Below, in pieces: positions 30,382 through 49,197 of a stretch of DNA of 64,000 nt (its first letter is position 1; every line of letters starts with the position of its first letter). The position numbers and the translations under genes were made by a program. Source of the stretch: Acidobacteriota bacterium (GTDB taxonomy: Bacteria > Acidobacteriota > UBA890 > WLXD01); NCBI GenBank assembly GCA_965205505.1, contig CBDBHB010000006.1, positions 384,001 to 448,000 on the forward strand, given 5' to 3'. Under the pieces are notes generated by a model. It had not been told where the DNA came from and did no database searches. It was given only the letters and a program-made list of their open reading frames with translations.

Positions 30382-31779
<1,398 letters not shown>

Positions 31780-32955: not shown

Positions 32956-33080
32956 GCTGTTCGCCGGATCCGGATAGCTGTGCGGGGGGATTGGACGTTG
33001 GTCGGCCGACGTTGCAAGGTACTCGCCCGGGACTGCAACTTGCACCCCTCGAGAATCAACAACCCTAACGAAGCGCCGGA

Positions 33081-33650: not shown

Positions 33651-33653
33651 AAA

Positions 33654-34067
33654 GTGTTGAACGGCACTCGGTGGTTCTTACGCATCGCCTTGGCGGCCGG
33701 GTTTCTGTCGGCGACGGCGGATCGAGTCGGTCTGTGGGGAGCGCCAGGGGCCCCCGGCGTCGCCTGGGGAAAGTGGTCGGAGTTTCTGGATTACGTCGCG
33801 GCGCTCAACTGGTTCCTGCCGGCGTTCCTCATCCCGCTGGTGGGCTGGGTTGCCACGCTTGGCGAAATCGCTTGCGCGATCGCTCTCCTGGTAGGGTGGC
33901 GGTTGAAGTTGGCCGCATGCGCCAGCGGCGTGCTGCTGCTCTTGTTCGCGCTGACCATGGCCATCGCCGAGGGGATCAAGTCACCGCTGGATTCGTCGGT
34001 CTTCGCCGCCGCCGGCGGCGCCTTCCTGCTTGCGGCGGTGACGGCCGATGAGGATCGTTCCTGCTAA
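33654..34067 (+). CDS. DoxX-family membrane protein
   Basis: LRIALAAGFLSATADRVGLWG...VAWG...GIKSPLDSSVF. Confidence 0.85.
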   Translation: MLNGTRWFLRIALAAGFLSATADRVGLWGAPGAPGVAWGKWSEFLDYVAALNWFLPAFLIPLVGWVATLGEIACAIALLVGWRLKLAACASGVLLLLFALTMAIAEGIKSPLDSSVFAAAGGAFLLAAVTADEDRSC

Positions 34068-34529
34068 GCCGAGCTCAGGCTGACCGTCCCGGGTCCTGCT
34101 ACGAGTTCTGGAAGAGTAGGCCGAAGCGCTTTCCATCTTGCTTCGTGTCCTCCGTTGGCAGCTGACCGATAGGTTTTCGACCACGGTGTCGGCCTCGGGT
34201 TGTTTTGCAGGTGCCCGAGCTTGTGGTCCTGAGCTACGTAACCGAGCTTCATGTGCAGCTCTCGAGCTCCGGACAGTTCGACGGCCTGGGCATTGGCCGC
34301 GTGGCCTCGTCCAACGGACAGGCAACGGTGGGCTTGGGGCTCCATGTCGACAGCGCGCTGGCCGCCGCGGTTGCCAGCGGGGCGGTCGACCTCGACGGTG
34401 ACAGGCCAGCTCGCCGGTGTGTTCTCTGTCATCGGTACGTCGGCGAGCGATCGAATGCGGGTCTCGGTCGCCGTGGAGCAGGACACGTAGGCCGAGGCCA
34501 CTCAACGCGTAACGGCGAGGATCGCCTCC

Positions 34530-34630
34530 GTGGCGCCCCAGCCGCGTGTCGTCGGCGAGATATACCTCGCCCAAGCCACCGTTGCCGAGCAATGCGGTCA
34601 GCTCGTAGGGTCCGGGTAGGGTACCGATAG
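34530..34630 (-). pseudogene. Remnant of a Ser/Thr kinase N-terminus
   Basis: Translates GPYELTALLGNGGLGEVYLADDTRLGR (subdomain I) with no later kinase motifs. Confidence 0.65.
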
Positions 34631-34688
34631 GTGAGTAAGGCCCGCGCGGCTATCATGGCGCGCGGACCCATACGAAGGAGGCGACCCG

Positions 34689-36467
34689 ATGAACCAGAGA
34701 TCTCGGAGCGGCGGCCGTTGCGTGGTCGCGGTTGTTGGCATGGCGCTGGCTTCGTGTGGTGGCGGCGGGCCGACGGCAGAAGAGGCGGCCGACGTCGCGC
34801 TGGTCAACGGCAAGATCATCACCGTCGACGCCACCGATAGCGTTGCCGAGGCCGTTGCGGTGAAGGACGGTCGCATCGTCGCGGTCGGCTCGAGCGCCGA
34901 GATCGACACACTGGTCGGTGTATCCACCCGCAGGATCGATCTCGGTGGCCGGGCGGCAACGCCGGGGCTGCTCGACGCTCACGCTCACTTCGGCAACGGC
35001 CGCGCCACGCGCATGTTCGTACTCGATCTCAGTTACCCAGGTGTGACTTCGGTCGCCGATGTGGTCGACAAGGTCGCCGAGCGTGTCGCGCAGGCCGAGC
35101 CCGGCGACTGGATCCGCGGCCGTGGCTGGGACGAGGGCAAGTTCGAGGAGTTGCGCTACGTCACCGCAGCCGACCTCGACGCGATCGCTCCCGACAACCC
35201 CGTGTGGCTGACGCACACCATGGGGCACTATGGCACCGCCAACAGCCTGGCGATGGAGCTTGCCGGCGTTACCCGCGACACCCCGGATCCGCCCGGCGGC
35301 ACCATCGATCACGACGCCGACGGCAACGCCACGGGCGTGTTGAAGGAGCGCGCCCAGGGGCTGGTCAACGGTCTGATTCCACCGATGAGCCCCGAGCAGG
35401 TGCGCGAAGGCATGCGCGACCTGTCGCAGGCCTTCAACGCCGAGGGCATGACCGGGGTGAAGGACCCCGGCATCGGGCAGGCAACCTGGGACGCGTACGC
35501 CGACGTGCTCGCCGATGGCGACCTCTCGGTCAGGGTATTCGTCCTGTGGCGCAGCCGGGGAGACCTGAGCGACGCGGAGGCGTTGGCGGAGCGTGTGGGG
35601 CCGTTTACCAGGCCGTACGAATCGACCGGCGACGATCGTTTGATCTCCGGTGGTATCAAACTCATGATCGACGGCAGCGGCGGGGCGCGCACCGCCTGGA
35701 TGTACGACGACTGGAACCGCGATTTCGACCAGGTCGACATCGGCAATCGCGGCTACCCGGTGGAGCCGGCGGAGCTGATTCGCGACAAGATTCGGCTGTT
35801 CCACGACGCCGGCCTCCACGTCAGCACCCACTCGATCGGCGATCGAGGCATCGACTGGGTGGTCGACAGCTACGCCATGGCGCTCGAGGACAATCCCCGT
35901 CCCGGACTACGCCACGGCATTATCCACGCCAACATCCCCACCGACCACGCCATCGACACGATGGCGCGGCTACAGCGAGAGTTCGACGCCGGCTTCCCGG
36001 AGCCCTCGCCGCCCTTCATGTGGTGGATCGGCGATACCTACGCCGGCAACTTCGGCCCCGATCGGGCGTTGCGCCTCAACCCGTTCGCGACCTTTGTCGA
36101 GAAGGGCATCCCCTGGGCAAGTGCGTCCGATTTCAGCGTTACGCCGTTCGAGGCCCGCTATGGGTTGTGGGCGTCGGTGGCACGCGAGACCTTGCTGGGC
36201 GTGTACGGCGACAACCCGTACGGATCAGACGAGTCGGTGGATATCCGCACCGCGCTACGCTCCTACACCATCTGGAGCGCGCGCCAGATGTTCCTGGAGG
36301 ACAAGATCGGCTCGATCGAGGTCGGCAAGTACGCCGATATCGCGGTATGGGACCGTGACCCGTACACGGTGCCCACGGCCGACATCAAGGACATGGTGTG
36401 CGAGATGACGCTTTTCGACGGCCGCGTCGTGTACGTCAACCCGCAGACCACGCTCGACATTCCATAA
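34689..36467 (+). CDS. Amidohydrolase (YtcJ/Amidohydro_3-like), probable lipoprotein
   Basis: PGLLDAHAH, KLMIDGS, HSIGDRG, GSIEVGKYAD; lipobox LASC. Confidence 0.92.
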   Translation: MNQRSRSGGRCVVAVVGMALASCGGGGPTAEEAADVALVNGKIITVDATDSVAEAVAVKDGRIVAVGSSAEIDTLVGVSTRRIDLGGRAATPGLLDAHAHFGNGRATRMFVLDLSYPGVTSVADVVDKVAERVAQAEPGDWIRGRGWDEGKFEELRYVTAADLDAIAPDNPVWLTHTMGHYGTANSLAMELAGVTRDTPDPPGGTIDHDADGNATGVLKERAQGLVNGLIPPMSPEQVREGMRDLSQAFNAEGMTGVKDPGIGQATWDAYADVLADGDLSVRVFVLWRSRGDLSDAEALAERVGPFTRPYESTGDDRLISGGIKLMIDGSGGARTAWMYDDWNRDFDQVDIGNRGYPVEPAELIRDKIRLFHDAGLHVSTHSIGDRGIDWVVDSYAMALEDNPRPGLRHGIIHANIPTDHAIDTMARLQREFDAGFPEPSPPFMWWIGDTYAGNFGPDRALRLNPFATFVEKGIPWASASDFSVTPFEARYGLWASVARETLLGVYGDNPYGSDESVDIRTALRSYTIWSARQMFLEDKIGSIEVGKYADIAVWDRDPYTVPTADIKDMVCEMTLFDGRVVYVNPQTTLDIP

Positions 36468-36491
36468 ACCTCACGCACTTCGGAGTTGAAT

Positions 36492-38774
36492 ATGCGTACC
36501 AATTGCCCGCCCCCGTTTCCCGCGTCGAGCGCGTTCATCGTCGCCGCTTTGCTGCTCGCCCCAACGCTTGCGGCCCCGGTCGAGGGCCAGGCCCCGGCCG
36601 ATGGGCCACGTGCCATGACCTTCCTCGACATGCAGCACATGGCTCGTGCCGGCTCCTTCACCCCTAGCCGCGACGGCAAGTGGATGCTGTACACGGTAAC
36701 CACACCCGATTGGGAGGAAGCGACGCAGCAGTCCGACATCCATTTGGTGTCACTGGAGCAGGGCGCCGCGTCGGGTCGTCGCATGACCTACACGGACGAC
36801 AAGAACGAGGGCTCCCCGGCATGGTCGCGCGACGGACGCTTCTTCGTGTTTGCTTCTGACCGCGACTCTGACGACGATAACGACCAGCTGTATCTGATGC
36901 GCCCGGATGGCGGCGAGGCGCGGCGAATCACGGATGCCGAGGACGGCGCGTCGAACTTCGCCTTCAGCGACGACGGCCAGTGGCTCGTCTACCGCAGCGG
37001 CGAGTCCGGCCGGGAGGAGCTGTTTCGACTTCCGGTGCAGGGCATCCACGCGGCCGTCGCCGAGCAGCTCACCGACGCCGCCGCCGGTGTCGAAGGCTGG
37101 GAGTGGGCTCCGGATAGCCGCCGGATCTACTTCGCCAGGCCCGATAGCGCCGATGCGGACGAGCGCTTGCGCACCGAGATGAAGTTCACCGTCGACGTTC
37201 GCAACCAGGAGACGCCGCTCTCGAGCCTGTGGGCGCTCGAGCTCGATTCGCTGGAGGCGACTCGGTTGACCGACAATGCGAGCATGAGCGTGGCGAGCTT
37301 CACGGTCTCCGACGACGGTCGCTGGGTGGGCTTCACGGGATCTTCGGCCGAGCGCTACGAGCGCAACATCACCGAGGAGCGTATCAACGCCGACCTCTAC
37401 CTGCTCGAGACCTCGACCGGGCATGTGGAGCGATTGACCGACAACCACGAGGTCGGTGAAGGCAGCATGAGCTTCTCGCCCGACGGGCGTCTGCTGGCGT
37501 TCTCCGCGCCCGGCGACATGCACGCCTACAGCATGAAGAACCGTCGCATCTACGTGCGCGAGGTCGAGGAGCGGGGCGGCGCGTTCCGCCAGGTCGGCAC
37601 CGGGTTCGATGGTCACGCCTCGCCGAGCTTCTGGTCCGACGACGGCGCGACCATCTTCTTCAACGGCGGCGTGCGTGTTACCAGCCAGCTTCACGGGGTC
37701 GACGTGGCCAACGATAGGGTGCAGCAGCTGACGCACGCAGAGGCCGCGCTCAGGGTCAGCCGCGACCGCGACTCCGGCGTGCTGCTGATCAACTACTCCG
37801 ATCCGAGCACCCCGCCGACGCTGTTCACGGTGGCCAGCGTCGAGGAGGTGGGCACGCGCTCGGCATGGAAGCAGCTCGTCGACGTCAACCGCCAGATAGA
37901 AGGCCTCGCCCTGGGCGAGGAGACCGAGGTCACCTGGACGTCGACCGACGGCAAGCAGGTCGGCGGCGTGCTGATGAAGCCGGTAGGCTACGAGGAAGGC
38001 AACCGCTACCCGCTCATCGTCGCCATCCACGGTGGCCCCGCCGGCGCCGACACGCTGCGGTTCAACGGCGGCTACGGATCACAGGTGTACGCTGGCGCCG
38101 GGTACGCGGTGTTGAAGCCCAACTACCGAGGCTCGTCCAACTACGGCGAGGAGCACCGCACCGCAATTGTCGGCAACTACTTTCCGCAGGGCTACGACGA
38201 CATCATGACCGGCGTCGACCACCTCATCGCCGAGGGCATAGTCGACCCCGGTCGCATGGGGGCGCTCGGCTGGAGCGCCGGCGGGCACTGGTCGAACTGG
38301 ATCCTCACCCACACCGACCGCTTCAAGGCGATCAGCTCCGGGGCGGGCACCTCGAACTGGATCTCGATGTACGCGCAGAGCGACGTACAGCGCAACCGCC
38401 AGTTCTACCTCGGCAACGACCTCCCGTACGACAACTACGACGCCTACTGGGAGCAATCGCCGATGAAGTACATCAAGAATGCCAAGACGCCGACGATGAT
38501 CCATGTGGTCGAGGGCGACCCGCGCGTTCCCAGCCCGCAGTCGGTCGAGCTGCACATGGCGCTCAAGAAGCTCGGTGTGCCGACCGAGCTGTACATGTAC
38601 CCGGGTCGCAGCCACGGCATCCCCGATCCGCGCAACCGGCTGGTGAAGTCGGTCAGCGAGATGGCGTGGATGGATTACTACGTGCGGGGCATCGGCGAGA
38701 AGTTCGCCTGGCGCGACGTGCTGAAGACACTCGAGGGCGAACCGGAAAAGACCGACGCGAACGGTGGCAGCTGA
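36492..38774 (+). CDS. S9-family peptidase with beta-propeller
   Basis: IHGGP, PNYRGS, GWSAGG nucleophile, DPRVP, SHG; PD40-like repeats. Confidence 0.93.
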   Translation: MRTNCPPPFPASSAFIVAALLLAPTLAAPVEGQAPADGPRAMTFLDMQHMARAGSFTPSRDGKWMLYTVTTPDWEEATQQSDIHLVSLEQGAASGRRMTYTDDKNEGSPAWSRDGRFFVFASDRDSDDDNDQLYLMRPDGGEARRITDAEDGASNFAFSDDGQWLVYRSGESGREELFRLPVQGIHAAVAEQLTDAAAGVEGWEWAPDSRRIYFARPDSADADERLRTEMKFTVDVRNQETPLSSLWALELDSLEATRLTDNASMSVASFTVSDDGRWVGFTGSSAERYERNITEERINADLYLLETSTGHVERLTDNHEVGEGSMSFSPDGRLLAFSAPGDMHAYSMKNRRIYVREVEERGGAFRQVGTGFDGHASPSFWSDDGATIFFNGGVRVTSQLHGVDVANDRVQQLTHAEAALRVSRDRDSGVLLINYSDPSTPPTLFTVASVEEVGTRSAWKQLVDVNRQIEGLALGEETEVTWTSTDGKQVGGVLMKPVGYEEGNRYPLIVAIHGGPAGADTLRFNGGYGSQVYAGAGYAVLKPNYRGSSNYGEEHRTAIVGNYFPQGYDDIMTGVDHLIAEGIVDPGRMGALGWSAGGHWSNWILTHTDRFKAISSGAGTSNWISMYAQSDVQRNRQFYLGNDLPYDNYDAYWEQSPMKYIKNAKTPTMIHVVEGDPRVPSPQSVELHMALKKLGVPTELYMYPGRSHGIPDPRNRLVKSVSEMAWMDYYVRGIGEKFAWRDVLKTLEGEPEKTDANGGS

Positions 38775-38788
38775 GAAGAGCGTTGGCC

Positions 38789-39095
38789 GTGTCCGAGGCC
38801 GCCGTACGATTCGACGATATCCACAAGAGCTACGGCGAGACCGTCGCGCTGTGCGGCGTGTCGTTCGAGGCTCGTTCTGGCGAGGCGTTCGGGCTACTGG
38901 GTCCCCAACGGTGCCGGCAAGACCAGCCTGATCGGGGTGCCAGTCTGGGAGCTGGCGCTGGCGCCGGGAATTCTGATCATCTCGACCTGGCTGGCGCTCA
39001 AGCTCGGGGCGCGGCTGTTTCGCATCGGGCTGCTGGCGCTCGGTAGCCGTCCGAAGCTGAACGAAATCTGGCGTCAGGCGCGCCTATCTAGATGA
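38789..39095 (+). pseudogene. Deleted ABC exporter: ATPase N-terminus fused to permease C-terminus
   Basis: IHKSYGETVAL...FGLLGP, +1 shift, NGAGKTSLI, directly followed by VPVWELAL...LGARLFRIGLLALGSRPKLNEIWRQAR. Confidence 0.85.
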
Positions 39096-39188
39096 GATGA
39101 GAAGGCCAACCTCCTGAACGCAGTAGCCTGACGGCTCTGCAAACGTTTCTTCAAACGTAACGGGCTCGAAGCCCAAGGAGGTTGGCCG

Positions 39189-40234
39189 ATGAGGAGTGTA
39201 ACGATTGGACTGGACGTAAGCGACCGGTACAGCCGTATGTGCGTGCTCGACAGTAAGGGCAGGGTGATGGAGGAAGGGCGGGTGAGGACGAGCCCGGAGG
39301 GGCTGGCGAGGCGGTTCGGGTGCGAGGAGCCCGCTCGAGTAGTGCTGGAGGTTGGAACGCACTCGCCGTGGATGAGTGAGCAGTTGAAGCAACTGGGTCA
39401 TGAGGTGCTGGTGGCTAACCCGAGGCGGCTGAAGCTGATCTATGGCGAGCACGACAAGACCGACCGGTTGGATGCCGAGCACCTGGCACGAGTGGGCAGA
39501 ATGGACCCAAAGCTGCTTAAGACGGTGCAGCATCGAGGCAGACAAGCGCGAGCGGATCTAGCCGTGATTCGGAGCCGAGATGCTCTGGTAAAGAGCCCAC
39601 GCAGTTGGTGAGCCATGTGCGTGGTGCGGTCAAGTCGGCCGGTTGTCGTATTCCCAGGTGCTCGACGCCGGCGTTCGCGCGCACCGCGCCAGAGCACATA
39701 CCGGAGCGGCTCAAGGGAGCGCTCGAGCCGGTGCTTGAAACGATCGCCATGCTGACGGGCAACATCCAGCAATACGAGCGTCAGATCGTGCAGCTGTGCC
39801 AGGGGCGATACCCGGAGACACAGCAGCTCCAGCAAGTGGCCGGGGTCGGAGCTCTGACCGCACTGGCGTATGTGCTGACGCTCGAGGAGCCGGAGCGGTT
39901 CAATACCTCCAGAGCCGTGGGCCCGTACCTGGGACTGAGACCGAAGAAACGGCAGTCGGGGGACAAGGACCCTGCGCTACGAATAACCAAGGCGGGCGAC
40001 AAAATGCTCCGACGCCTGTTGGTGGGCTCGGCGCATTACATCCTGGGCCCCTTCGGGCCCGATACTGAGCTCAGACGCTGGGGGCTCAAGCTGGCCGGAC
40101 GCGGTGGTCCTCATGGCAACAAAAAGGCAGCAGTTGCTGTCGCCCGTAAGCTCGCCGTTGTGCTGCACCGACTGTGGCTGAGTGGAGACGAGTACGAACC
40201 GTTGCGCGCACCTGTAGAGGTTTCAGCAGCATGA
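39189..40234 (+). pseudogene. IS110-family DEDD recombinase/transposase, frameshifted
   Basis: IGLDVS, VLEVG, DKTDRLDAEHLAR, GVGALTA, YLGLRPKKRQSG, ITKAG, AVARKL; one base missing near 39597. Confidence 0.92.
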
Positions 40235-40239
40235 ACTAA

Positions 40240-40480
40240 CCCGCAACCAGGAGGTCGGTAGGGCGACGCGACCCAACGGTTATCGATCTGACCGCCCGGT
40301 CCGGGCGACTGCGAAGGTCACTACGAGCTTCGAGCTCGGCAGCTAGATTGCAGCGCCTCGAATCGGGACGGACCCCAGAATGCACCGGACGACCTGAATC
40401 CTCGTCCACCAGAGTGCGAATAGGAGCATGGCGTGCAGATCGATTCTTCGCTGGCCACCACATTGCCCTTGACCGAACTA
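40240..40480 (+). ncRNA. Candidate bridge RNA/seekRNA region (boundaries approximate)
   Basis: Stem 40309-40314/40348-40353 encloses loop strands AGGTCACTA and GCAGCTAGA and hairpin CGAGC-TTCGA-GCTCG; AGGTCACTA is complementary to target TAGTGGCCT; ATAGGAG (40420-40426) resembles the IS end ATAGAAG. Confidence 0.75.
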
Positions 40481-40494
40481 GGCCTTCTCATAGA

Positions 40495-40769
40495 AGTGGC
40501 CTGTAGCAGATGATCGTTGCCTATCGCAGATGGGATTTGCGGGTGAGATCAAGGCGCGGCGAGGAAGGCGATGCAGAGGGCATCGTCGACGAGGCGCAAC
40601 GCCGATATCGCCCGCAACTGCCCATCTGTCCGGAGGATGGCGGCGAAATCGGCCCGTCTGCGGCGTTGCTCCTCCTCCAAGATGGGCAAACATCGTCTCG
40701 TCGTCGCGCCTGGCATCCGGACCCATTTCGCCACCACGATACGCAACGATCATCTGTTACAGACCACTA
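40495..40769. mobile_element. Non-autonomous MITE-like element with ~33-bp terminal inverted repeats
   Basis: AGTGGCCTGTAGCAGATGATCGTTGCCTATCG (40495-40526) versus CGATACGCAACGATCATCTGTTACAGACCACTA (40737-40769), 3 mismatches; TA ends; second partial copy in the window. Confidence 0.88.
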
Positions 40770-40774
40770 GTGGC

Positions 40775-41545
40775 CTATTTCCGTCGGCTCGGAACTGGAA
40801 CCTGAAGAACTTGGCCGGGGTAGATGCGCGTCGACTGCAGCGCGTTGTTGGACTGGATACGGTCGGTCGTTGTGCCGTGGTTCTGCGCGATTCTCCAGAG
40901 CGTGTCACTACGACTCACTCTGTAGGCCACGACATCGGTGAATCCGGTGCCGGAACGCGGACTCGACCGGCCGACAAGTTGCCGCACATACTCGGCATAC
41001 TGGCGTGGGAACAGCGCCACGTGGTAGTGCGGCGGGTGTTTCTCGGCCGCGGCCTCGAGCACGCCGCGCTCTTCGAGCGACAGCAGGATTCTCTCGAGCC
41101 AGCTACGACACGACGGCTTGTTGTGCCGCCGCAGGTCGATTGCCATCCCGGTCGGGTGTACCGACCGGGGCGATGCGTTGCGCGGCTGACCGGTTTGCGG
41201 GCGCGTCAGGCTGGTGACCACCAGTTGCTCGCCGCAGGCGGCGCGAAACTGCGCCGCCAACCGCTCGGTGAAGAGCTTTACCTCCGGCCGCGCGTAGGGG
41301 TATGAGAGATCCTTGAGGGTGTAGTCGCGATTGCCGCGCAGCTGCACCAGCAAGCCGGCGCTTACGAACCGGGAAACGTGCGTTCCGTCGCGCATGAACG
41401 TGAAGTCGTGCACGCTAGCCTGGTGGTTCTGGCGGTCCATCGAGCTGCGGCTGCCACGGAGGCTCTGCGCGTCCGCCGCGCTTGCAGACAGTGCCAGCCC
41501 GACAAGAGCAGCAAGAAGATATGAGACTGTCTTTTGAATCGTCAA
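40775..41545 (-). CDS. DUF5715 (peptidase M15-like) protein with C-terminal LysM domain
   Basis: Signal peptide, VTSLTRP, SVHPTGMAIDL, PPHYHVALF, LysM YRVSRSDTLWRIA...IYPGQVLQVP; start uncertain. Confidence 0.85.
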   Translation of the reverse strand: MTIQKTVSYLLAALVGLALSASAADAQSLRGSRSSMDRQNHQASVHDFTFMRDGTHVSRFVSAGLLVQLRGNRDYTLKDLSYPYARPEVKLFTERLAAQFRAACGEQLVVTSLTRPQTGQPRNASPRSVHPTGMAIDLRRHNKPSCRSWLERILLSLEERGVLEAAAEKHPPHYHVALFPRQYAEYVRQLVGRSSPRSGTGFTDVVAYRVSRSDTLWRIAQNHGTTTDRIQSNNALQSTRIYPGQVLQVPVPSRRK

Positions 41546-41727
41546 AATATTGTTGAGTCGTGAAAACACGTTAAACCAAGGCCAACAATTGTTGAAGATG
41601 CTATAAGCTATCATTAGCTAGTTTCACCTAACAAGAGTTTGTTGAACACGTTTATTGACCGCGAAGAATCGCCATGCGCTAGCTGATGATTCGGATTGGG
41701 CCCGGCGTGTGCCACTATGATTTGTGC

Positions 41728-42969
41728 ATGGCCGAAACAGCAGAACCCCGAAGTGGCCTGGTAGGGCAAGGACGTGGCCAACAGCGGCCAGCAGTGCGCA
41801 GCAATGCGCCTGCGGCGCAGTCAATGGCTGGCAAGGTCCTGGGCGCGGTCCGCGCCAGACATTCCGAGGCGGTGGAATTTCTTCGGAAGCTCGTTTTCGC
41901 CGAGACCCCGACGCTCGAGCCGCATACACAGACCGTGGCGCTCCAGCAGCTCACCGAGGGGCTGGCGGCGGCCGGTCTCCGGTGTCGGCGACATTCGGGC
42001 TACACCAGCGGCGGCATGCTGTTGGCTAGCTGGCCACGCCAGCGGCGTTCGTCGCTGCAGTTGCTGATCGGCCACTGCGACACTGTTTGGCCGCTCGGCA
42101 CACTCGAGACCATGCCGGTCGAGATAGAGGGATCGCGCATGCGGGGCCCCGGCGTGTATGACATGAAATGCGGTGTAACGCAGACGGTGTATGCGTTGCA
42201 CGTGTTGCGGGACCTCGGCTTGGAGCCCGAGGTCAAGCCGGTGGTGTTCATCAACTCCGACGAAGAGATCGGTAGCCACGATTCCGAGAAGTACATTCGG
42301 TGGCTCGCCGGCTGTGTCGACCGAGCCTACGTCATGGAGCCGTCGCTGACGTCGGCAGGCTGGCTGAAAACGGCCCGCAAGGGGGTGCGGCAGTATCGAG
42401 TCAAAGTAACTGGCCGGGCGGCTCACGCCGGGTTGAATCCTGAGGAGGGAGTGAGCGCCATCTTGGAGATGTCGCGTCTGGTGGAAGAGCTGTTCGCGCT
42501 CAACGACGCCCAGCGCGGTATCAGCGTAAACGTCGGGATCATCGGTGGCGGAACGCGCTCGAACGTCATCGCTGCCGAGTGTGTGGCAGATGTCGACGTG
42601 CGCGTTCCGACGCTCGATGACGCGTCGCGGGTCGACGCCGCGATCCGCAGCCTGACGACCACGCACCCGGCCGCAACCGTGCAGGCGGTTCAAGCGCAAG
42701 GACGGTCGCCCATGGAGCAGACCGCCGGCGGGAAGTCGCTTTGGGACGCCGCGCGGCGTCACGCCGAGAGCCTGGGCTTTGAGCTCGAGCACGGACGCGC
42801 CGGCGGCGGATCGGACGGCAACATAACCAACCTCTACACGCCGACGCTCGACGGGCTCGGCGCCGTCGGCGACGGCGCGCACGCCTCGCATGAATATGTC
42901 GATCTCGAGCAGATGGTCGAACGTACGGCGCTGCTGGTGTTGCTTTTGTTGGAGCCGCCACTCTCGTGA
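41728..42969 (+). CDS. M20-family metallopeptidase (carboxypeptidase G2-like)
   Basis: GHCDTVW, GPGVYDMK, SDEEIGS, GRAAHAG, GGGSDGN, AHASHE; start uncertain. Confidence 0.92.
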   Translation: MAETAEPRSGLVGQGRGQQRPAVRSNAPAAQSMAGKVLGAVRARHSEAVEFLRKLVFAETPTLEPHTQTVALQQLTEGLAAAGLRCRRHSGYTSGGMLLASWPRQRRSSLQLLIGHCDTVWPLGTLETMPVEIEGSRMRGPGVYDMKCGVTQTVYALHVLRDLGLEPEVKPVVFINSDEEIGSHDSEKYIRWLAGCVDRAYVMEPSLTSAGWLKTARKGVRQYRVKVTGRAAHAGLNPEEGVSAILEMSRLVEELFALNDAQRGISVNVGIIGGGTRSNVIAAECVADVDVRVPTLDDASRVDAAIRSLTTTHPAATVQAVQAQGRSPMEQTAGGKSLWDAARRHAESLGFELEHGRAGGGSDGNITNLYTPTLDGLGAVGDGAHASHEYVDLEQMVERTALLVLLLLEPPLS

Positions 42970-43532
42970 CCCTGCGCATACCCGTCGTGCTGGGCAGCAT
43001 TCGCCAGGGTCGCAACACGCCACGGCTGGCACGCTTCATTCTGCGCAAGCTCGGAGAGCGCGACGATGTGCAATCAGACTTGATCGACCTGCGCCGGCTG
43101 GAGCTTCCGCTGGTCGAAGAACGGTTGCGTTTTCTCGACGAGCCGCCGCCTGGGCTGACTGCGCTGAGCGAACACATCGACCGCGCCGACGCGGTGGTCA
43201 TTGCCACGCCGGAATACAACAAGGGTTACCCGGCGGCGCTCAAGAACGCCATCGATGCATTGGGCTCGGAATGGCGTCGCAAGCCCGTCGGAATCGTGGC
43301 CCACTCGGTGGGGGCGTTCGGTGGCATGGTGGTGCTGCAACAACTTCGCATTGTCCTCATGAACCTGGGGGCCGTGCCGATTCCCGCCGCGATGACCGTG
43401 CCGAACATCGAGCACACCCTCGACGTGGATGGTGCGGCGCTCGACGAGGCCTTCGAGGGCCGGGGTGGCCGCTTCGTCGACGAGCTGCTCTGGTACGCGC
43501 GAGCGCTGAGAAATGCTAGCGCAGACGGATGA
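42966..43532 (+). CDS. NADPH-dependent FMN reductase
   Basis: LGSIRQGR, TPEYNKGYPAALKNAID. Confidence 0.92.
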   Translation: MTLRIPVVLGSIRQGRNTPRLARFILRKLGERDDVQSDLIDLRRLELPLVEERLRFLDEPPPGLTALSEHIDRADAVVIATPEYNKGYPAALKNAIDALGSEWRRKPVGIVAHSVGAFGGMVVLQQLRIVLMNLGAVPIPAAMTVPNIEHTLDVDGAALDEAFEGRGGRFVDELLWYARALRNASADG

Positions 43533-43637
43533 CATCAGAGTCGCAGAGCCGGCTCGAATTGCTCCTCTGACGCGGCTGTCGTAAGCTCCCGTGACTCTGT
43601 TTTGGTCTAGTCCCACCGCGCGAGGCAAGATGCGTTC

Positions 43638-45422
43638 ATGAGCGTCCCCGAGGAGAAGTTCGTCGACGAGGCTGGGCCCGATGATGCCCACGCACACGGC
43701 GAGAGCTTCATCTGGAAGTACGTCTTCTCGACCGATCACAAGACCATCGGGATCCAGTACGGCCTGACGGCTCTGTGCTTTCTGTTGTTCGGCTTCTGCC
43801 TGATGCTGCTGATGCGCTGGCAGCTGGCCTCGCCTGGCGCGCCCATACCCATCATCGGCGGCTTCCTGGGCCAGGCAAACGCGCCGGGCGGCATCATGCT
43901 GCCGGAGTTCTACAACCAGCTCGGTGCCATGCACGGCACCATCATGGTGTTCCTCGCCATCGTGCCGATGATCGTCGGCGCCTTCGGCAACTACGTCGTG
44001 CCGCTGCAGATCGGCGCCCCCGACATGGCGTTCCCGAAGCTCAACATGGCGAGCTACTGGTTCTACTTCGTCGGTGGCGTGGTCATGCTGGCGAGCTTCT
44101 TCCTTCCCGGCGGTGCGGCGAACTCGGGCTGGACCTCATACGCACCGCTCTCGATTATCGCCACGATGGGACAGACGGCGTGGCTGATCGGCATGATCTG
44201 CCTGATCAACTCGTCGCTGCTCGGATCGATGAACATCATCGTGACCATCTTCCAGCTGCGCGCGCCGGGTCTTACCTGGATGCGACTGCCATTTTTCGTC
44301 TGGGCGCAGCTGGTCACCTCGTTCTTGCTCGTGCTGGCGTTCCCGCCGCTCGAAGCGGCGGGGGCGATGCAGCTCATGGATCGCCTCGCCGGCACCAGCT
44401 TCTTCATGCCCAGCGGCCTCTACGTGTCGGGGCAGATTCTCGAGTATGCCGGTGGCGGCTCGGTGCTGCTGTGGCAGCATCTCTTCTGGTTCCTGGCGCA
44501 CCCAGAGGTTTACGTGCTAGTCCTGCCGGCGATGGGCATCGTCGCCGAGGTGATTGCCAACAACACCCGCAAGCCGCTTTGGGGCTACAAGGCGCTGGTG
44601 TACTCGACGGTGTTTCTCGGCTTCATGTCCTTCGTCGTGTGGGCGCACCACATGTTCATGACCGGCATGGGCACGGTGATCAGCGCCTTTTTCCAGACCA
44701 CCACGATGATCATCTCGATCCCGTCGGTGGTGATCTTGACGGCCTTGCTGATCTCTCTGTGGGGCGCCTCGATCCGCTTCAACACGCCGATGTTGTTCGC
44801 GCTGGCTTTCCTGCCCATGTTCGGCATCGGCGGGCTGACAGGGCTGCCGCTCGGTCTGGCGCCAGCGGACATCCACCTCCACGACACGTACTACGTGATC
44901 GGGCATTTCCATTATGTCGTGGCGCCCGGAACCATCTTCGGCATCTTCGCCGGCATCTACTACTGGTTCCCGAAGATTACCGGCCGGATGATGAACGAAG
45001 TGCTTGGCAAGCTGCACTTCTGGGGGTCGCTGGTCTTCATTAACTGCATCTTCGCACCGATGTTCCTGCAGGGGTTGGCCGGCGTATCACGGAGGCTGTA
45101 CGACGGTGGCGCCCAGTACTCGCACGCCCAGCCCGTGCTGCACTGGAACACCTTCATCTCGTACTCGGCGTTCCTACTGGCGGCGGCGCAGATCCTCTTC
45201 ATCGTCAACTTCCTGTGGAGCATCTTCCGCGGCAAGCGCGCGACCGCCAACCCGTGGGAGGCCACCACGATCGAGTGGACGGCTACCACCTCGCCGCCGC
45301 TCGGACACGGCAACTTCGAGACCCTGCCGAAGGTGTACCGGGGTCCCTACGAGTACAGTGCGCCCGGTGCAGAGGACAGCTTCATCGCTCAGGATGCGGC
45401 GCCCGCGCCGCAGGGGGGATAG
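43638..45422 (+). CDS. ctaD: Cytochrome c oxidase subunit I (A-type)
   Basis: TDHK, MHGTIM, HPEVY, WAHH, HDTYYVIGHFHY, RR. Confidence 0.96.
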   Translation: MSVPEEKFVDEAGPDDAHAHGESFIWKYVFSTDHKTIGIQYGLTALCFLLFGFCLMLLMRWQLASPGAPIPIIGGFLGQANAPGGIMLPEFYNQLGAMHGTIMVFLAIVPMIVGAFGNYVVPLQIGAPDMAFPKLNMASYWFYFVGGVVMLASFFLPGGAANSGWTSYAPLSIIATMGQTAWLIGMICLINSSLLGSMNIIVTIFQLRAPGLTWMRLPFFVWAQLVTSFLLVLAFPPLEAAGAMQLMDRLAGTSFFMPSGLYVSGQILEYAGGGSVLLWQHLFWFLAHPEVYVLVLPAMGIVAEVIANNTRKPLWGYKALVYSTVFLGFMSFVVWAHHMFMTGMGTVISAFFQTTTMIISIPSVVILTALLISLWGASIRFNTPMLFALAFLPMFGIGGLTGLPLGLAPADIHLHDTYYVIGHFHYVVAPGTIFGIFAGIYYWFPKITGRMMNEVLGKLHFWGSLVFINCIFAPMFLQGLAGVSRRLYDGGAQYSHAQPVLHWNTFISYSAFLLAAAQILFIVNFLWSIFRGKRATANPWEATTIEWTATTSPPLGHGNFETLPKVYRGPYEYSAPGAEDSFIAQDAAPAPQGG

Positions 45423-45425
45423 GCG

Positions 45426-46010
45426 ATGGACATTCCCTACACTGTCGAAGCGCGGCCCGACACCGGCCTTTACAACGCCAAGCTCGGAATCTGGTTGTTT
45501 CTGGCGTCCGAGGTGATGCTGTTCGGGGCACTGTTCTCGTCGTACATCCTGCTCAGGACCAGCGACCCCAACTGGTACCACGCCGACCTCAACGTCCCGA
45601 TGGCCACGTTGAACACCATGTTTCTGATCACCTCGTCGGTGACCGTGGTGCTGTCGTGGGCGTCACTGCGCCTCAACGACTTCGCCAAGTTCAAGTTGTG
45701 GGGAATCGCTACCTTCCTGCTCGCTTCGGCGTTCATGGTGGTCAAGGCCTTCGAGTACAACGAGGAGTTCACCCACGGTCTGTATCCCGCCACCAACAAT
45801 TTCATGGCGGTGTACTTCACCATGACCGGCCTGCACGGGCTGCACGTGCTCGGCGGCATGATCGTGATCGCCTACCTCCTAGGTCCTGGCGCCAAGATGT
45901 GGAACACGGCGCCCGAGCGGTTCACGAATCGCGTCGAGACCTTCGGCCTGTACTGGCACTTCGTCGATCTGGTGTGGATCTTCCTGTTTCCCGCCCTGTA
46001 CCTGCTTTAG
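45426..46010 (+). CDS. ctaE: Cytochrome c oxidase subunit III
   Basis: WLFLASEVMLFG, TGLHGLHV, YWHFVDLVWIFLF. Confidence 0.95.
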   Translation: MDIPYTVEARPDTGLYNAKLGIWLFLASEVMLFGALFSSYILLRTSDPNWYHADLNVPMATLNTMFLITSSVTVVLSWASLRLNDFAKFKLWGIATFLLASAFMVVKAFEYNEEFTHGLYPATNNFMAVYFTMTGLHGLHVLGGMIVIAYLLGPGAKMWNTAPERFTNRVETFGLYWHFVDLVWIFLFPALYLL

Positions 46011-46019
46011 GGAGCCCCG

Positions 46020-46361
46020 ATGAGCGGCCACAGCCCGGAAGAGATCCAGCAGGAAGTGCGTAAGTACTTCATGGTCTTCGGCGCCCTGGCAGTGCTGACG
46101 GCGGTGACCGTCGCGGTCAGCTACCTCGACCTGACGTCCGGTTTGGCGGTAACCCTGGCGATGATTATCGCCACCGTCAAGGGGTCGCTGGTTGCCGGTT
46201 ACTTCATGCACCTGCTCGACGAGAAGAAGCTCATATACAGCATCCTGTTGTTGACCCTCATGTTCTTCATCGTGCTGATGGGCCTGCCGGCGGGGACCAT
46301 AGCCGACACGACGGGCGAACCGATCCACGCAGCCGCACCGACGTCCCCGGCGGAGCATTGA
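46020..46361 (+). CDS. ctaF: Cytochrome c oxidase subunit IV
   Basis: IATVKGSLVAGYFMHL; three TM segments. Confidence 0.9.
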   Translation: MSGHSPEEIQQEVRKYFMVFGALAVLTAVTVAVSYLDLTSGLAVTLAMIIATVKGSLVAGYFMHLLDEKKLIYSILLLTLMFFIVLMGLPAGTIADTTGEPIHAAAPTSPAEH

Positions 46362-46362
46362 G

Positions 46363-46566
46363 ATGTCGTTGAAGTCGTTTCACGTGGTGTTCATCTGTGC
46401 TTCGATCGTCCTCTGCTTCATGGTCGGCGCCTGGGCACTCCAGCAGTATCGACTCTCCGACGAGACCGGGCACCTGTGGTTGGCGGTGGTGTTCTACGCG
46501 AGCGGCGTAGCCCTGGTGGCCTACGGCCTACGGTTCGTACGCAAGATCCGGGAGCTGGGAATCTGA
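46363..46566 (+). CDS. Small two-TM protein in the cox operon
   Basis: MSLKSFHVVFI...; tightly coupled to both neighbours. Confidence 0.75.
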   Translation: MSLKSFHVVFICASIVLCFMVGAWALQQYRLSDETGHLWLAVVFYASGVALVAYGLRFVRKIRELGI

Positions 46567-46829
46567 TGCTTAGCCGGGTGGCTTCGATCGTGATACTGAC
46601 CGCCTCGGCGGCGCTCGTTCCGGCCGTCGCCGAGGCGTGCCCGGTCTGTTATGGCGATATCGGCGGTCCGGCGGCGCGCGGCATCAACAACGGAATCCTG
46701 TCGATGCTGGCCGTGGTCGGCGTCGTTCAGATCGGCTTCGTAATGCTGTTCGTGGGCATGTGGCGCCGCGGCAAGCTGCTGCGCGAGCGTAAGGAGAGCT
46801 TCAAGGTGATTGACGGAGGCGTGCGATAA
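46566..46829 (+). CDS. Small exported CxxC protein with one TM segment, in the cox operon
   Basis: Signal peptide ending AEA, then CPVCYG; ATG overlaps the upstream stop. Confidence 0.75.
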   Translation: MLSRVASIVILTASAALVPAVAEACPVCYGDIGGPAARGINNGILSMLAVVGVVQIGFVMLFVGMWRRGKLLRERKESFKVIDGGVR

Positions 46830-47690
46830 ATGCTCTCGCTCATGCAGCAGTGGATGCCGGTAAATGGTGCGGCCCACGGACAGGCGCTGGACGAGATGTC
46901 GGCGCTAGTGCATTGGGTGATGCTGATCTTGTTCGTCGGCTGGGGGCTCTACTTCGCTTACGTCCTGTTTCGTTTCCGCGCCGGCGCCAATCCGCGCGCC
47001 AGCTACAAGGGCGCCACCAGCCACTTCTCACAGTACGTCGAGGTCAGCGTCGGCGTCATCGAGGTGGTGTTGCTGGTTTTCTTCGCCATTCCGGCGTGGG
47101 CGAGCTGGGTCGACCCGCCGGCCGACGGCGAGGCACTCGAGATCCGCGTGGTCGCCGAGCAGTTTCTGTGGAACGTTCAGTACAGCGGACCCGACGGTGT
47201 CTTCGGTCGTACCGGGCTCGAGTTCATTACGCCGACCAACACCATCGGGATCGACCGCTCGGACCCCTATGCGGTCGACGACGTTATCTCGACCAACCAG
47301 CTGCATCTGCCGGTAGATCGACCGATCACGCTGCTGCTGTCCTCGAAGGACGTGATCCACAGCTTCGCCCTGCAGCAGATGCGTGTGAAGCAGGACATCA
47401 TCCCCGGTCTCATGATCCCGGTGCATTTCACCCCGATCATGGTGACGCCGGAGGAGTCGGCGTATCCGGCCTGCGCCGGCGACAAGACGTGCTGGGAGAT
47501 CACCTGCGCACAGCTTTGCGGCCTCGGCCACTTCCGCATGCGCGGCTTTTACACCATCTACGAGCAGGCGGATTTCGATGCCTGGATGGCTGAACAAGTT
47601 GCCGCAGTCATGCCCGCGCCCGCAGCGGTCGAGGCAGAGGCAGCAGACGAGGAAGCCGAGCCGGAACCGGTCGTCCAGGGGGAGCAGTAG
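46830..47690 (+). CDS. ctaC: Cytochrome c oxidase subunit II
   Basis: CuA ligands DVIHSF and CAQLCGLGHFRM; two TM segments; no CxxCH domain. Confidence 0.94.
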   Translation: MLSLMQQWMPVNGAAHGQALDEMSALVHWVMLILFVGWGLYFAYVLFRFRAGANPRASYKGATSHFSQYVEVSVGVIEVVLLVFFAIPAWASWVDPPADGEALEIRVVAEQFLWNVQYSGPDGVFGRTGLEFITPTNTIGIDRSDPYAVDDVISTNQLHLPVDRPITLLLSSKDVIHSFALQQMRVKQDIIPGLMIPVHFTPIMVTPEESAYPACAGDKTCWEITCAQLCGLGHFRMRGFYTIYEQADFDAWMAEQVAAVMPAPAAVEAEAADEEAEPEPVVQGEQ

Positions 47691-47752
47691 AGTCGGCAAG
47701 CCCCGAGAGACGGCGGTCTAGCAACGGGAGGTTAGGCCATGAGGCTGTTCTC

Positions 47753-49177: not shown

Positions 49178-49197
49178 TCGCCTAGCTGGCCAACGAC

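Follow-up and report, generated by a model that had tools for sequence, protein, structure and literature searches.

An IS1111-type insertion sequence in the terminus of a structured, probably IS630-type MITE of an Acidobacteriota bacterium

Insertion sequences (ISs) of the IS1111 group are defined by sub-terminal inverted repeats of about 11-13 bp, by terminal extensions of 7 (or 6) and 3 bp, and by a longer non-coding region downstream of the transposase gene (PMC11187229). ISEc11, ISPa11 and ISKpn4 combine a DEDD transposase and a downstream non-coding region with 11-bp repeats and 7-bp/3-bp extensions; in IS1111/IS110 elements a short RNA segment complements the target, and in IS1111 seekRNAs the complement of the top strand is placed 5' of the bottom-strand match (PMC11187229). 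ISPpu9 inserts into REP sequences, a repeated palindromic target (PMC12288879), and an IS1111-family member with sub-terminal repeats occupies a fixed position and orientation in the terminal repeat of a large Tn3-family transposon. In Coxiella burnetii, an IS1111-family IS prefers a small non-autonomous repeat, QMITE2, with about twenty insertions that were dated by IS-free copies in sister strains; there the IS enters a REP-like palindrome internal to QMITE2, for which 7-11-nt direct repeats are described (PMC5896051). On the side of the repeats, IS630 and IS630-derived MITEs are characterised by a TA duplication, a preference for CTAG and a location at gene ends (PMC2170065), the TA of CTAG being the reported IS630 preference (Tenzen & Ohtsubo 1991, title; PMC2170065). 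A conserved core is a feature of the coral CMITEs, eukaryotic piggyBac-type (TTAA) elements with a 75-nt core that also occur in tandem and nested arrangements; no covariation-supported fold is reported in the passages describing these elements (PMC2872659). Our literature search for a link between IS110/IS1111 elements and MITEs, or for bacterial MITEs with a conserved core under different repeats, returned the Coxiella and coral precedents.

The locus described here lies in a 64,000-nt stretch of an Acidobacteriota genome (the window), in which an IS1111-type IS interrupts the end of a structured MITE with two modules and itself ends directly before AGTGGCCT (Table 1). Such nesting was the core of the original prediction, and the precedents named there (IS4321/IS5075 in Tn21 terminal inverted repeats, IS621 in REPs) are apt, with IS1111 in QMITE2 being closer. 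Compared with QMITE2, the target here is at the very terminus of the MITE, consisting of CTAG and six repeat bases, the MITE is apparently of IS630 type, and the transposases are not close. The Tn3-family case matches in the fixed position and orientation within a terminal repeat and in the sub-terminal repeats, whereas the host element here is a MITE with ~100 free targets per genome. Unlike in the described seekRNA/bridge-RNA elements, the target consists of no more than CTAG on its left side, and the guide is a predicted one.

Table 1. Coordinates of the nested elements within the window
Feature	Position	Strand	Remarks
IS1111-type IS, IS110 family	39090..40494	+	1405 bp; from copy comparison and family geometry
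CT, left half of split CTAG	39088..39089	+	T is the first base of the left TA duplication of the MITE
IS left sub-terminal inverted repeat ATGAGAAGGCC	39097..39107	+	perfect 11-nt complement of 40481-40491
DEDD transposase gene	39189..40234	+	frameshifted here: ORFs 39189-39611 and 39605-40234
IS non-coding region	40235..40494	+	260 nt 3' of transposase gene; presumed seekRNA/bridge-RNA gene
Candidate guide AGGUCACUA	40315..40323	+	complements target top strand TAGTGGCCT, one G.U; putative
CUAG, candidate bottom-strand CTAG match	40343..40346	+	same loop, 3' side; weak, 4 nt; putative
IS right sub-terminal inverted repeat GGCCTTCTCAT	40481..40491	+	11 nt
AGTGGCCT, right half of IS target	40495..40502	+	A of the TA and first 7 bases of the MITE repeat
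MITE proper, inverted-repeat class 1	40496..40767		272 bp
MITE left terminal inverted repeat	40496..40526	+	repeat search
MITE module 1	40527..40628		long stem around inner hairpin; covariation
MITE central 4-bp hairpin	40628..40638		GTCC GGA GGAT
MITE module 2	40639..40736		counterpart of module 1, inverted; covariation
MITE right terminal inverted repeat	40737..40767	-	minus strand starts CTAGTGGTCT
MITE right TA target-site duplication copy	40768..40769		next base (40770) is the G of CTAG
Unoccupied exact IS target word CTAGTGGCCT	40767..40776	+	MITE end, duplicated TA, G and flank TGGCCT

The MITE had been predicted as a structured element of ~275 bp with ~33-bp terminal inverted repeats, TA ends and two opposed modules; all of these parts are present, and the measured values are 272 bp and 31/32-nt repeats. 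The inverted-repeat arms (40495-40526 and 40737-40768, 32 nt) are 91% complementary, and the minus-strand start of the right repeat, CTAGTGGTCT, has one mismatch to the IS target. The module stems pair 40532-40550 with 40604-40622 and 40638-40661 with 40713-40736, the arms of the inner hairpin of module 1 lie at 40567-40574 and 40580-40587, and a motif of the form AGGCGCGGCGA, hairpin, GACGAGGCGCAACGCC at 40552-40604 recurs as its reverse complement at 40661-40711. The closing G.U pair of the central hairpin is present in 35 of 35 aligned copies. Folded as a single strand, the MITE reaches z = -8.1 as RNA and z = -7.4 as DNA, equalled by 0 of 200 shuffles either way. Its left flank, T(39089)/A(40495), is interrupted by the IS and its right flank is the TA at 40768-40769; both lie inside C...G, giving a CTAG target with TA duplication.

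At the orthologous site of a sister genome (G004) the sequence reads gaaaCTAGgcc, which is the empty allele that had been sought and which establishes the window MITE as an inserted element. The window MITE was absent from the orthologous spot in all four same-genus genomes, and likewise at three of three loci examined the orthologous sites of sister genomes had no MITE. Among 224 termini of core-bearing elements, the flanks were CTAG (204), CTAA (15), TTAG (4) and TTAA (1), and the genome's IS630-family ISs (DDE_3) are themselves flanked by CTAG. The inverted repeats of the MITEs also resemble those of these resident ISs: type A and MITE class 4b are identical over the first 15 of 15 nt, while class 1, to which the window MITE belongs, agrees by a by-eye count with type A at about 13 of 20 nt and with an IS of genome G007 at about 24 of 32 nt. 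The latter IS (64% identical) has the ends CTAG-TCTCCTGTAACAG.GGTTCG, near MITE classes 1 and 4a. The predicted IS630-type mobilisation is thus supported by sequence comparison, in that it fits the CTAG target with TA duplication, the empty site and the likeness of the repeats to IS630-family ends, and the transposase that moves the MITE presumably belongs to this family.

A further check proposed with the original prediction, the search for a transposase with the same terminal repeats, was negative in this genome. We found no autonomous IS630 element with class-1 repeats in this genome and no element with repeats identical to class 1; the sole two inverted-repeat pairs lying 0.7-5 kb apart (C2:8067-10071 and C6:204281-206329) hold ordinary ORFs and no transposase, and an autonomous partner of this kind in the genome was therefore rejected. 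The internal ~214 nt have no source in the IS630 elements of this genome, in which the reading frames begin ~40 nt inside the terminus, and are kept under many repeat classes in our phylum sample; in both respects the element is unlike IS630-derived bacterial MITEs.

A genome-wide copy search of the kind suggested with the original prediction returned 21 near-full-length MITE copies (81-100% identity) and 234 loci carrying the core. Across the phylum sample, this core of ~214 nt with two hairpins shows stronger conservation than the inverted repeats, and it is present in 41 of the 151 genomes, representing 30 of 105 genera. The repeats that enclose it belong to 10 or more different classes. 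Chimeric elements whose left and right repeats belong to different classes are present, as are re-mobilised composite elements, one-module derivatives (38 + 24 partial core matches, many showing both repeats) and mini-elements that consist of the repeats and have no core. The MITE family is old and occurs across the phylum of its host, and its architecture of a conserved core with variable ends is unusual for bacteria. The family itself appears to be undescribed, although both kinds of element are known: no description was found in the literature searched (subscription journals and ISfinder lay outside the search). The element had no match in 72,556 plasmids. Rfam 15 gave no family match for positions 38900-41000 of the window, the hits being two microRNA models that scored 16.5 and 17.9 bits where gathering scores are 70 and 64.

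The fold of the core is conserved as structure. In alignment A1, 91.8% of the cells were paired, compared with 33-51% when the partners were slid, and double changes occurred in 34 of 49 pairs; the observed values were reached by 0 of 500 shuffles. When A1 was extended by other families of the phylum (A3), 92.9% were paired versus 28-46%, double changes were found in 47 of 56 pairs, and the covariation score was 0.462 versus 0.057-0.083. The covariation signal of the core is equally compatible with RNA and with single-stranded DNA.

The IS is represented by 28 near-full copies that are 98.7-99.9% identical, ten of which encode an intact transposase of 348 aa. An intact copy matches PF01548 (E 1.1e-17) and PF02371 (E 5.7e-17), and the non-coding region after the stop codon measures 260 nt versus 99 nt before the start. 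The terminal extensions are AGATGAG on the left (7 bp, 39090-39096) and AGA on the right (3 bp, 40492-40494), lengths that assume insertion between CT and AG. We assigned the IS to IS1111 because of the Pfam pair, the 11-bp sub-terminal repeats, the 7-bp/3-bp extensions and the downstream non-coding region; the single target and orientation agree with this group as well. The best named relatives found for the transposase are 37-43% identical, one of them being a 43%-identical gene of a Myxococcota MAG. No match to the protein at E <= 1e-20 was found in any of the four same-genus genomes (92-96% complete), three of which hold 35-46 MITE matches each. Because its copies are near-identical and the protein has no match in these same-genus genomes, the IS is a recent arrival.

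The junctions of the IS are nearly invariant. On the left 28 of 29 read CTAG and one TTAG, and on the right 30 of 31 read AGTGGCCT and one AGTGACCT. MITE-type inverted repeats hold at least 25 of 31 copies: of 28 right junctions caught by a regular expression, 23 run on as such a repeat, and so do two of the three that it missed, which were read directly. This is in keeping with the expected enrichment at MITE termini. The other six stand at the word with no recognised inverted-repeat motif beyond it, two of their flanks looking like degenerate repeats, and for this reason the IS recognises a 10-bp word and not MITEs as such. Of the target originally proposed, the specificity has thus held, while the MITE as the thing recognised has given way to the word. 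The genome contains about 140 copies of the word, 22% of them occupied; there are 109 unoccupied occurrences of CTAGTGGCCT. One exact copy spans the right junction of the window MITE, where a further match had been foreseen, and TGGCCT adjoins 10 of 224 MITE termini in a count of sliced 6-mers.

Occupancy differs sharply between types of repeat end: 18 occupied against 65 free for TGGCCTGTA[AG]CAG ends, 6 against 0 for TGGCCTGAGTCAG ends, 0 against 46 for TGTCCT... ends, 0 against 212 for class 2 and 0 against 64 for class 3. The TGTCCT ends are one base off the TGGCCT ends and share their downstream motif, yet none of the 46 is occupied while all six TGGCCT ends are, so that the IS discriminates by a single base. 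We considered whether IS insertion converts TGTCCT to TGGCCT, given the full occupancy of the latter, and dropped this idea: two of eight ends in the IS-free genome G004 are of the TGGCCTGAGTCAG type and unoccupied, which makes TGGCCTGAGTCAG a naturally occurring form and not one created by insertion.

How the word is read is suggested by the non-coding region of the IS. Its best match to the target is the 9-nt AGGUCACUA, which the predicted fold places in the 5' strand of an internal loop and which is likely the seekRNA guide. Matches of this region to the bottom strand were all shorter than 6 nt. The order within the loop, with the complement of the top strand first, agrees with that reported for IS1111 seekRNAs, and on these grounds we infer the identity of the guide RNA.

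Two alternatives would change the reading of the nested elements themselves. If AGTGGCCT were part of the right end of the IS, the conservation of the target would be an artefact and the link with the MITE a coincidence. That all six TGGCCTGAGTCAG ends are occupied, although the usual form of this repeat is TGTCCT, would fit, and so would C9:685108, an occupied site where a clear inverted repeat is missing and where the sister genomes lack the target word; for another occupied site with no clear repeat no orthologue was found, and two occupied class-4 MITEs are uninformative about the repeat before insertion, since their orthologous sister loci carry neither MITE nor IS. Against this stand the 109 free CTAGTGGCCT words, mostly intact MITE ends, the occupied MITEs, in which the sequence beyond the IS makes up an entire inverted repeat complementary to the opposite end, and the free CTAGTGGCCTGAGTCAG in the IS-free G004; moreover, only an IS end at 40494 gives 7-bp/3-bp extensions as the family rule requires. 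We therefore rejected this highly improbable alternative and retain AGTGGCCT as target. The other alternative, raised by the original prediction, makes the window element a member or distant relative of the enterobacterial ERIC (IRU) repeats. Both are palindromic intergenic repeats with hairpin potential and TA ends, and a likeness to the AAGGCG...CAACGC motif had been noted, although no search result backs homology: in 20,395 E. coli records, from 5,426 genomes, a blastn search (word 11) with the 284-nt element gave no match at E <= 10, and the plasmid and Rfam searches were equally negative. The sequences have no detectable similarity, the host genome has a G+C content of 64%, and the ERIC unit, a single imperfect palindrome of ~127 bp (PMC2759123), differs in size and build from the 272-bp MITE with its two modules and central hairpin. 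Homology to ERIC was rejected on these searches, kinship of even a distant sort is almost certainly wrong, and by sequence the MITE appears to resemble ERIC in kind only.

What the conserved fold does is a separate question, on which two readings were weighed. The two-hairpin core may act in cis, for example by bridging the ends or by recruiting a host factor, and so raise IS630-type transposition, which would account for its being kept under many different inverted repeats. The core outlasts the repeats in conservation across the phylum sample, selection on a multicopy family mainly concerns its ability to spread, and the chimeras of different repeat classes and re-mobilised composites are also in keeping with such a role; coral CMITEs show the same pattern, and a role of this kind was proposed for them by their authors (PMC2872659). 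The one-module derivatives and repeat-only mini-elements count against it, and we hold this reading tentatively, as a possible one. The core could instead work as RNA: co-transcribed with the gene upstream, it would form a 3'-end hairpin with the effect of stabilising the transcript or of ending transcription, whichever way round the element lies. Stabilisation or termination by 3'-end hairpins has been reported for other bacterial repeats. Termini fall exactly at a TAG stop in 70 of 206 cases for ORFs of at least 100 codons, compared with 46 of 412 in control frames, and in 49 versus 12 for ORFs of at least 200 codons. No orientation bias relative to upstream genes was seen (left termini 23 of 99, right termini 33 of 107), which fits a near-symmetric element, and the fold is very stable. 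Metatranscriptome contigs cover the MITE together with the 3' part of the IS, a pattern from which DNA carry-over of a ~30-copy repeat would be indistinguishable. However, the placement at stop codons is explained by the CTAG target alone, CTAG being rare in the genome (5,853 observed versus 19,712 expected), and host-level selection on single copies is weak; we regard the RNA reading as unlikely. More broadly, the core might have a function of its own as a nucleic-acid module, old and widespread in the phylum sample, with a fold under purifying selection, that travels by its coupling to interchangeable IS630-type repeats; we hold this view to be possible, though less likely than not. Possible roles of such a module are that of a cis-acting transposition enhancer, that of an RNA 3'-end element brought to stop codons by way of CTAG, or that of a module serving element and host alike. 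The family would then parallel the coral CMITEs in bacteria and could represent a new family of structured RNA or DNA, and the RNA-guided IS would have evolved to parasitise one repeat class with single-base precision.

For the locus as a whole, we consider it quite probable that it nests two elements of known kinds, an IS630/Tc1-mariner-type MITE in CTAG and, later, a word-targeting IS1111-type IS. In the proposed history, a non-autonomous 272-bp MITE would have entered a CTAG whose TAG serves the gene upstream as its stop codon, duplicating the TA; it has ~31-bp terminal repeats around the ~214-nt core, which as a single strand folds into two long hairpins and a small central one. The 1405-bp IS would have arrived later, between CT and AG of the MITE's CTAG, its target CTAGTGGCCT being made up of CTAG and the first six bases of the class-1 repeat. 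Recognition would most likely proceed through a seekRNA/bridge RNA from the non-coding region, the loop AGGUCACUA pairing with TAGTGGCCT, and insertion would be expected at CTAGTGGCCT and CTAGTGACCT and not at CTAGTGTCCT. The MITE ends raise the number of words in the genome about a hundredfold and therefore provide ready-made, largely harmless landing sites for the IS.

Looking ahead, the genome amounts to a natural specificity experiment for an RNA-guided recombinase, in which IS-free sisters supply the empty alleles, and this compact system could be used to study targeting rules of seekRNA/bridge RNAs and their tolerance of G.U pairs. Conservation of the core over the inverted repeats is the reverse of the usual MITE pattern, and because it is the core that is conserved, the role of internal MITE sequences becomes directly testable. 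The family also lends itself to curation as a structured repeat, since otherwise it will be reported anew as a 'novel ncRNA' from many genomes of the phylum.

The MITE repeats and ~30 IS copies break or mis-join assemblies, as around the window. The left flank of the IS in the window is not the original neighbour of the MITE. A second copy of this flank stands at the end of contig C6 and a second copy of the right side at the start of contig C7, and the two flanks lie ~200 kb apart in relatives; this join may reflect either a rearrangement, such as an IS-mediated inversion polymorphism, or an alternative in the assembly. The junction between IS and MITE as such is seen again at C7 and at further loci. 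When contigs from reads (three DNA-like runs and one metatranscriptome) were compared with the syntenic copy L096, no contig bypassed the IS there and no empty allele was seen, in contigs that drop variants and that break at the IS/MITE borders. The word depth of the IS was ~33, 18 and 36x that of its flanks, which fits a multicopy IS and is not to be read as a copy number.

An IS at the end of a two-module inverted-repeat element, as described in the original prediction, was confirmed: an IS1111-type insertion sequence (IS; 1405 bp) directly precedes a 272-bp MITE whose arms, stems and predicted motifs were all found, with the motifs oppositely oriented (see table). The MITE single strand folds with -148.9 kcal/mol as RNA (z = -8.1) and -80.4 kcal/mol as DNA (z = -7.4), energies equalled by 0/200 shuffles in each case, and in the predicted fold the inverted repeats form an outer stem around two hairpin arms, with a small hairpin at the centre. 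The proposed likeness to ERIC repeats is an analogy; membership was not supported by searches with the MITE, which gave no match in any complete E. coli genome (blastn, E <= 10) or in plasmids, and only sub-threshold microRNA noise in Rfam. Homing of an IS1111-type element to a repeat is already known, and the arrangement is a fresh case of it. Its closest precedents are IS1111 in QMITE2, as excerpted accounts describe it, and then IS4321/IS5075 in Tn21 inverted repeats, which had been named from the start. The initial observations were correct and the inferences mostly so.

Features of the window locus, repeat-end classes and derived elements (C6 to C9 are contigs of the same genome; copy numbers are approximate, from reading the list of core loci)
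Feature	Position	Description	Ends occupied by IS	Ends free	Copies
Gene-region 3' end	upstream of IS	ends ...CCTATCTAG; first in order across 38400-41400
Insertion sequence	39090-40494	second in order; between CT and AG of a CTAG
MITE	40496-40767	AGTGGCCTGTAGCAG...CTGTTACAGACCACTAG; third in order, directly after IS
Convergent gene	stop codon 40775-40777	preceded by TGGCCTATTTCC; fourth in order
MITE inverted arms	40495-40526 / 40737-40768	32 nt, 91% (repeat search)
Internal long stem 1	40532-40550/40604-40622	repeat search
Internal long stem 2	40638-40661/40713-40736	repeat search
Repeat start TGGCCTGTA[AG]CAG			18	65
Repeat start TGGCCTGAGTCAG			6	0
Repeat start TGTCCTG...			0	46
Repeat start TGGTCTG			0	9
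Class 1 (window MITE)		start TGGCCTGTAACAGATG..			~22
Class 2		start CAGGCCGTGGTGAAAG..	0	212	~55
Class 3		start TGCTCCTGATCATAAG..	0	64	~22
Class 4a / 4b		starts TGTCCTGTAACAGAGG.. / TGTCCTGAGTCAG..			~16
Class 5		start CAGGGTGCTGAA..			~6
Class 6		single copy			1
~555-bp composite (examples)	C9:2938804-2939355, C8:236956-237503, C8:899341-899892, C9:1907437-1907989
Tiny palindromes (examples)	C9:1656966, C8:620181, C9:129733

The IS left flank (28751-39091) has an inverted duplicate at the end of contig C6 (C6:513832-524174, 99.97% identical) and the MITE right flank (40777-50410) a duplicate at the start of C7 (C7:1-9635, 99.94%). Because these flanks are duplicated at contig ends and are separated by ~200 kb in three sister genomes, the window join would be either an IS-mediated rearrangement (an inversion polymorphism) coexisting with the parental forms or an alternative of the assembly. 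There is no doubt about the junction of IS and MITE, since C7 has it too, next to the syntenic left flank, and comparable junctions are present at further loci. Upstream, 38933-38934 is a deletion junction within an ABC-transporter region: a Walker-A-bearing N-terminus is fused straight to the C-terminal portion of a membrane protein, two halves that are separated by 1,923 bp in the sister genome G004 (C15:2093993 to 2095917).

BLAST of the genome (5.98 Mb, 9 contigs, 64% G+C) with window 39080-40500 returned 33 rows, including 28 near-full-length IS copies that are 98.7-99.9% identical. Their longest ORF (348 aa) is intact in 10 of the 28 and frameshifted in the window copy, and the intact protein matches PF01548 and PF02371. 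The ends, AGATGAG + ATGAGAAGGCC ... GGCCTTCTCAT + AGA, comprise sub-terminal inverted repeats of 11 bp, extended by 7 bp on the left and 3 bp on the right, and a long non-coding region (NCR; 260 nt) lies 3' of the transposase gene. The IS limits were set between CT and AG because the end features fit the IS1111 family, which excerpts of Siddiquee et al. (PMC11187229) define by the same domain, end and NCR features. Copies lacking the 348-aa frame carry short indels despite >98.6% identity among copies; these may reflect genuine decay or indel errors of long reads.

The IS protein was not found (E <= 1e-20) in four genomes of the same genus (completeness 92-96%), three of which have 35-46 MITE matches each. 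Among 40 related genomes its nearest relative, a broken copy in G011, shares 63-68% identity; the best plasmid match is 36.7% identical, and the sole match in a species-representative collection 43%. Since the protein was not found in the same-genus genomes and only distant relatives turned up elsewhere, the IS is a recent arrival, which has spread to ~30 copies on MITE ends already present.

Left IS junctions read CTAG in 28/29 cases and TTAG in one, right junctions AGTGGCCT in 30/31 and AGTGACCT in one; the pattern TAGAAGTGGCCT occurs 31 times, one above the BLAST-defined junctions. Unbroken, the word CTAGTGGCCT has 109 occurrences in the genome, most of them termini of repeat elements. A regular expression caught 28 of the 31 right junctions, 23 of which continue as a MITE-type inverted repeat, as do two of the three it missed, 25/31 in all. 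The six remaining right flanks scored 'other', two resembling degenerate inverted repeats by reading. The occupancy of TGGCCTGAGTCAG starts against TGTCCTG starts (6/6 vs 0/46) reflects single-base discrimination by the IS. That the contrast is a by-product of insertion is ruled out by IS-free G004, where the TGGCCTGAGTCAG variant stands unoccupied at 2/8 ends, and the contrast is therefore ascribed to discrimination. One IS copy (C9:685108-686521) occupies a site without a clear MITE repeat; because the CTAGTGGCCT word and ~20 surrounding bp are absent from the orthologous sites of three sister genomes, the site perhaps held something else before, maybe a repeat remnant.

The additional guide-match word claimed across the right MITE junction is an exact CTAGTGGCCT (40767-40776), made of the terminal C of the MITE, the duplicated TA and G, and flanking TGGCCT; at this spot G004 has GCCGCAC where the window has TGGC. 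TGGCCT adjoins 10/224 MITE termini (sliced 6-mer count), mostly where neighbouring repeat ends have one common CTAG. Judged by its sequence, the word is a potential IS target; the right MITE end itself reads TGGTCT, one mismatch from the target.

Within the NCR (40235-40494), AGGUCACUA (40315-40323) is the stretch that best complements the top strand of the target; it pairs with TAGTGGCCT including one G.U pair and would match TAGTGACCT, the sole variant junction, perfectly and without wobble. In the predicted NCR fold (z-score only -2.3) it makes up one side, the 5' one, of an internal loop that has CUAG on the 3' side. No NCR match of at least 6 nt to the bottom strand was found. According to excerpts of PMC11187229, the IS1111 seekRNA rule puts the top-strand complement first, with matches overlapping in the target, and the order here agrees. 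AGGUCACUA is likely to be a guide for IS targeting.

MITE and IS are both missing at the orthologous site in 4/4 same-genus genomes, and G004 provides the anticipated empty CTAG allele (...gaaaCTAGgccgcacctatttcc). Comparison with the syntenic C7 copy, gaaaCTAG-[IS]-AGTGGCC...CCACTAG-tggcctatttcc, indicates that the MITE entered at the TA of CTAG with TA duplication. Genome-wide, the flank at the termini of core-bearing elements is CTAG (204/224), CTAA (15), TTAG (4) or TTAA (1). That IS630 prefers TA in CTAG is known from the title of Tenzen & Ohtsubo 1991, as cited in PMC2170065. Six DDE_3 matches in the genome represent two IS630-family types, both with CTAG flanks, and type A has its first 15 nt in common with MITE class 4b; a 64%-identical IS in the related genome G007 ends ..CCTGTAACAG.GGTTCG.., near classes 1 and 4a. 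A transposase with the TIRs of the window MITE was sought in the genome and not found, nor was any autonomous element with class-1 repeats. The TA duplication at CTAG, the resident IS630-family elements with CTAG flanks and the similar repeat starts support the suggested IS630-type mobilisation of the window MITE. Two related genomes, G039 and G007, have at least 47 and at least 41 IS630-family transposase matches, compared with 7 here.

For this MITE, the TAG of the target CTAG terminates the upstream gene and is rebuilt by both MITE and IS. The genome contains 3.4-fold fewer CTAG words than expected (5,853 observed vs 19,712 expected). MITE termini fall on the TAG stop of ORFs of at least 100 codons in 70/206 cases vs 46/412 control frames, and of at least 200 codons in 49 vs 12. 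At a 150-codon threshold, one or both termini lie on such a stop in 48 of 128 elements, both in eight, and no orientation bias was seen among the 128. Because the CTAG target coincides with TAG stops, it brings MITEs to gene ends with genes unbroken. At such ends the MITE restores the stop codon, as does any IS present.

Further copies were abundant: a 21-core profile gave 432 nhmmer hits at 234 loci (128 full, 106 partial) in the same genome. Related genomes match the MITE interior (query ~40-245) at 72-80% identity with unmatched ends, and 20 relatives' copies fetched have one core (the ~214-nt two-hairpin interior) under very different inverted repeats, all (C/T)TA(G/A)-flanked. Alignment A1 (MAFFT) held 37 cores: 19 of 26 relatives' loci, with partial and near-duplicate rows removed, and 18 from this genome, namely the window copy and 17 fetched representatives of 21 clusters at 92% (four were left out, three because of truncation or a deletion, plus the fetched L087). 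RNAalifold predicted 49 pairs, 34 with compensatory changes; compared with partners slid 1-3 columns, paired cells were 91.8% vs 32.9-50.6%, doubly changed cells 274 vs 33-63 and the covariation score 0.435 vs 0.070-0.092, with 0/500 shuffles as high by any measure. Alignment A3 (35 rows after removal of two near-duplicates: 11 own, 14 same order, 10 other families of the phylum) gave 56 pairs, 47 with compensatory changes, 92.9% vs 28.3-45.9% paired and a score of 0.462 vs 0.057-0.083 (0/500 shuffles as high), the figures from both alignments overstating independence as the sequences are related and the structure derives from the same alignments. Several pairs nevertheless have three to four balanced types (e.g. 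GC 17 / UA 16 / AU 2; CG 11 / GC 11 / AU 6). The core fold is conserved, the covariation fitting RNA or single-stranded DNA alike.

A covariance model from A1 was run on 151 genomes evenly drawn across the phylum, with stricter filters and at most 15 candidates scored per genome. Full-length core matches (E <= 1e-5) occurred in 41/151 genomes and 30/105 genera, including families far from that of the window (one positive, the unpublished G071, is counted only in this tally). Copies from seven further genomes again had new repeat classes with CTAG/TTAG/CTAA flanks. Because the same core recurs across the phylum sample under differing repeat classes, it is both older than the mobilising ends and more strongly conserved, whereas MITEs usually show the opposite. 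Excerpts of PMC2872659 describe coral CMITEs with a likewise conserved core under variable ends, called unusual there; our literature search found no bacterial description. The family of the MITE is structured, widespread among the sampled genomes of the phylum and, it seems, undescribed; its build of conserved core and variable ends merits follow-up.

Chimeric elements, with differing left and right repeat classes, are also present. In a ~555-bp composite, a class-2 MITE lies within the inner-hairpin loop of module 1 of a class-1 MITE (junctions GCGATG|CTAG...CTGG|GGCATCG); several copies exist, and the nested pair was therefore re-mobilised as one unit. Partial core hits include 38 with module 2 only and 24 with module 1 only, many showing both repeats, and repeat-only mini-palindromes occur as well. 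The tiny palindromes, with ~19-25 bp between CTAGs, contain little beyond two abutting inverted-repeat starts and are at times tandem, with CTAGs in common.
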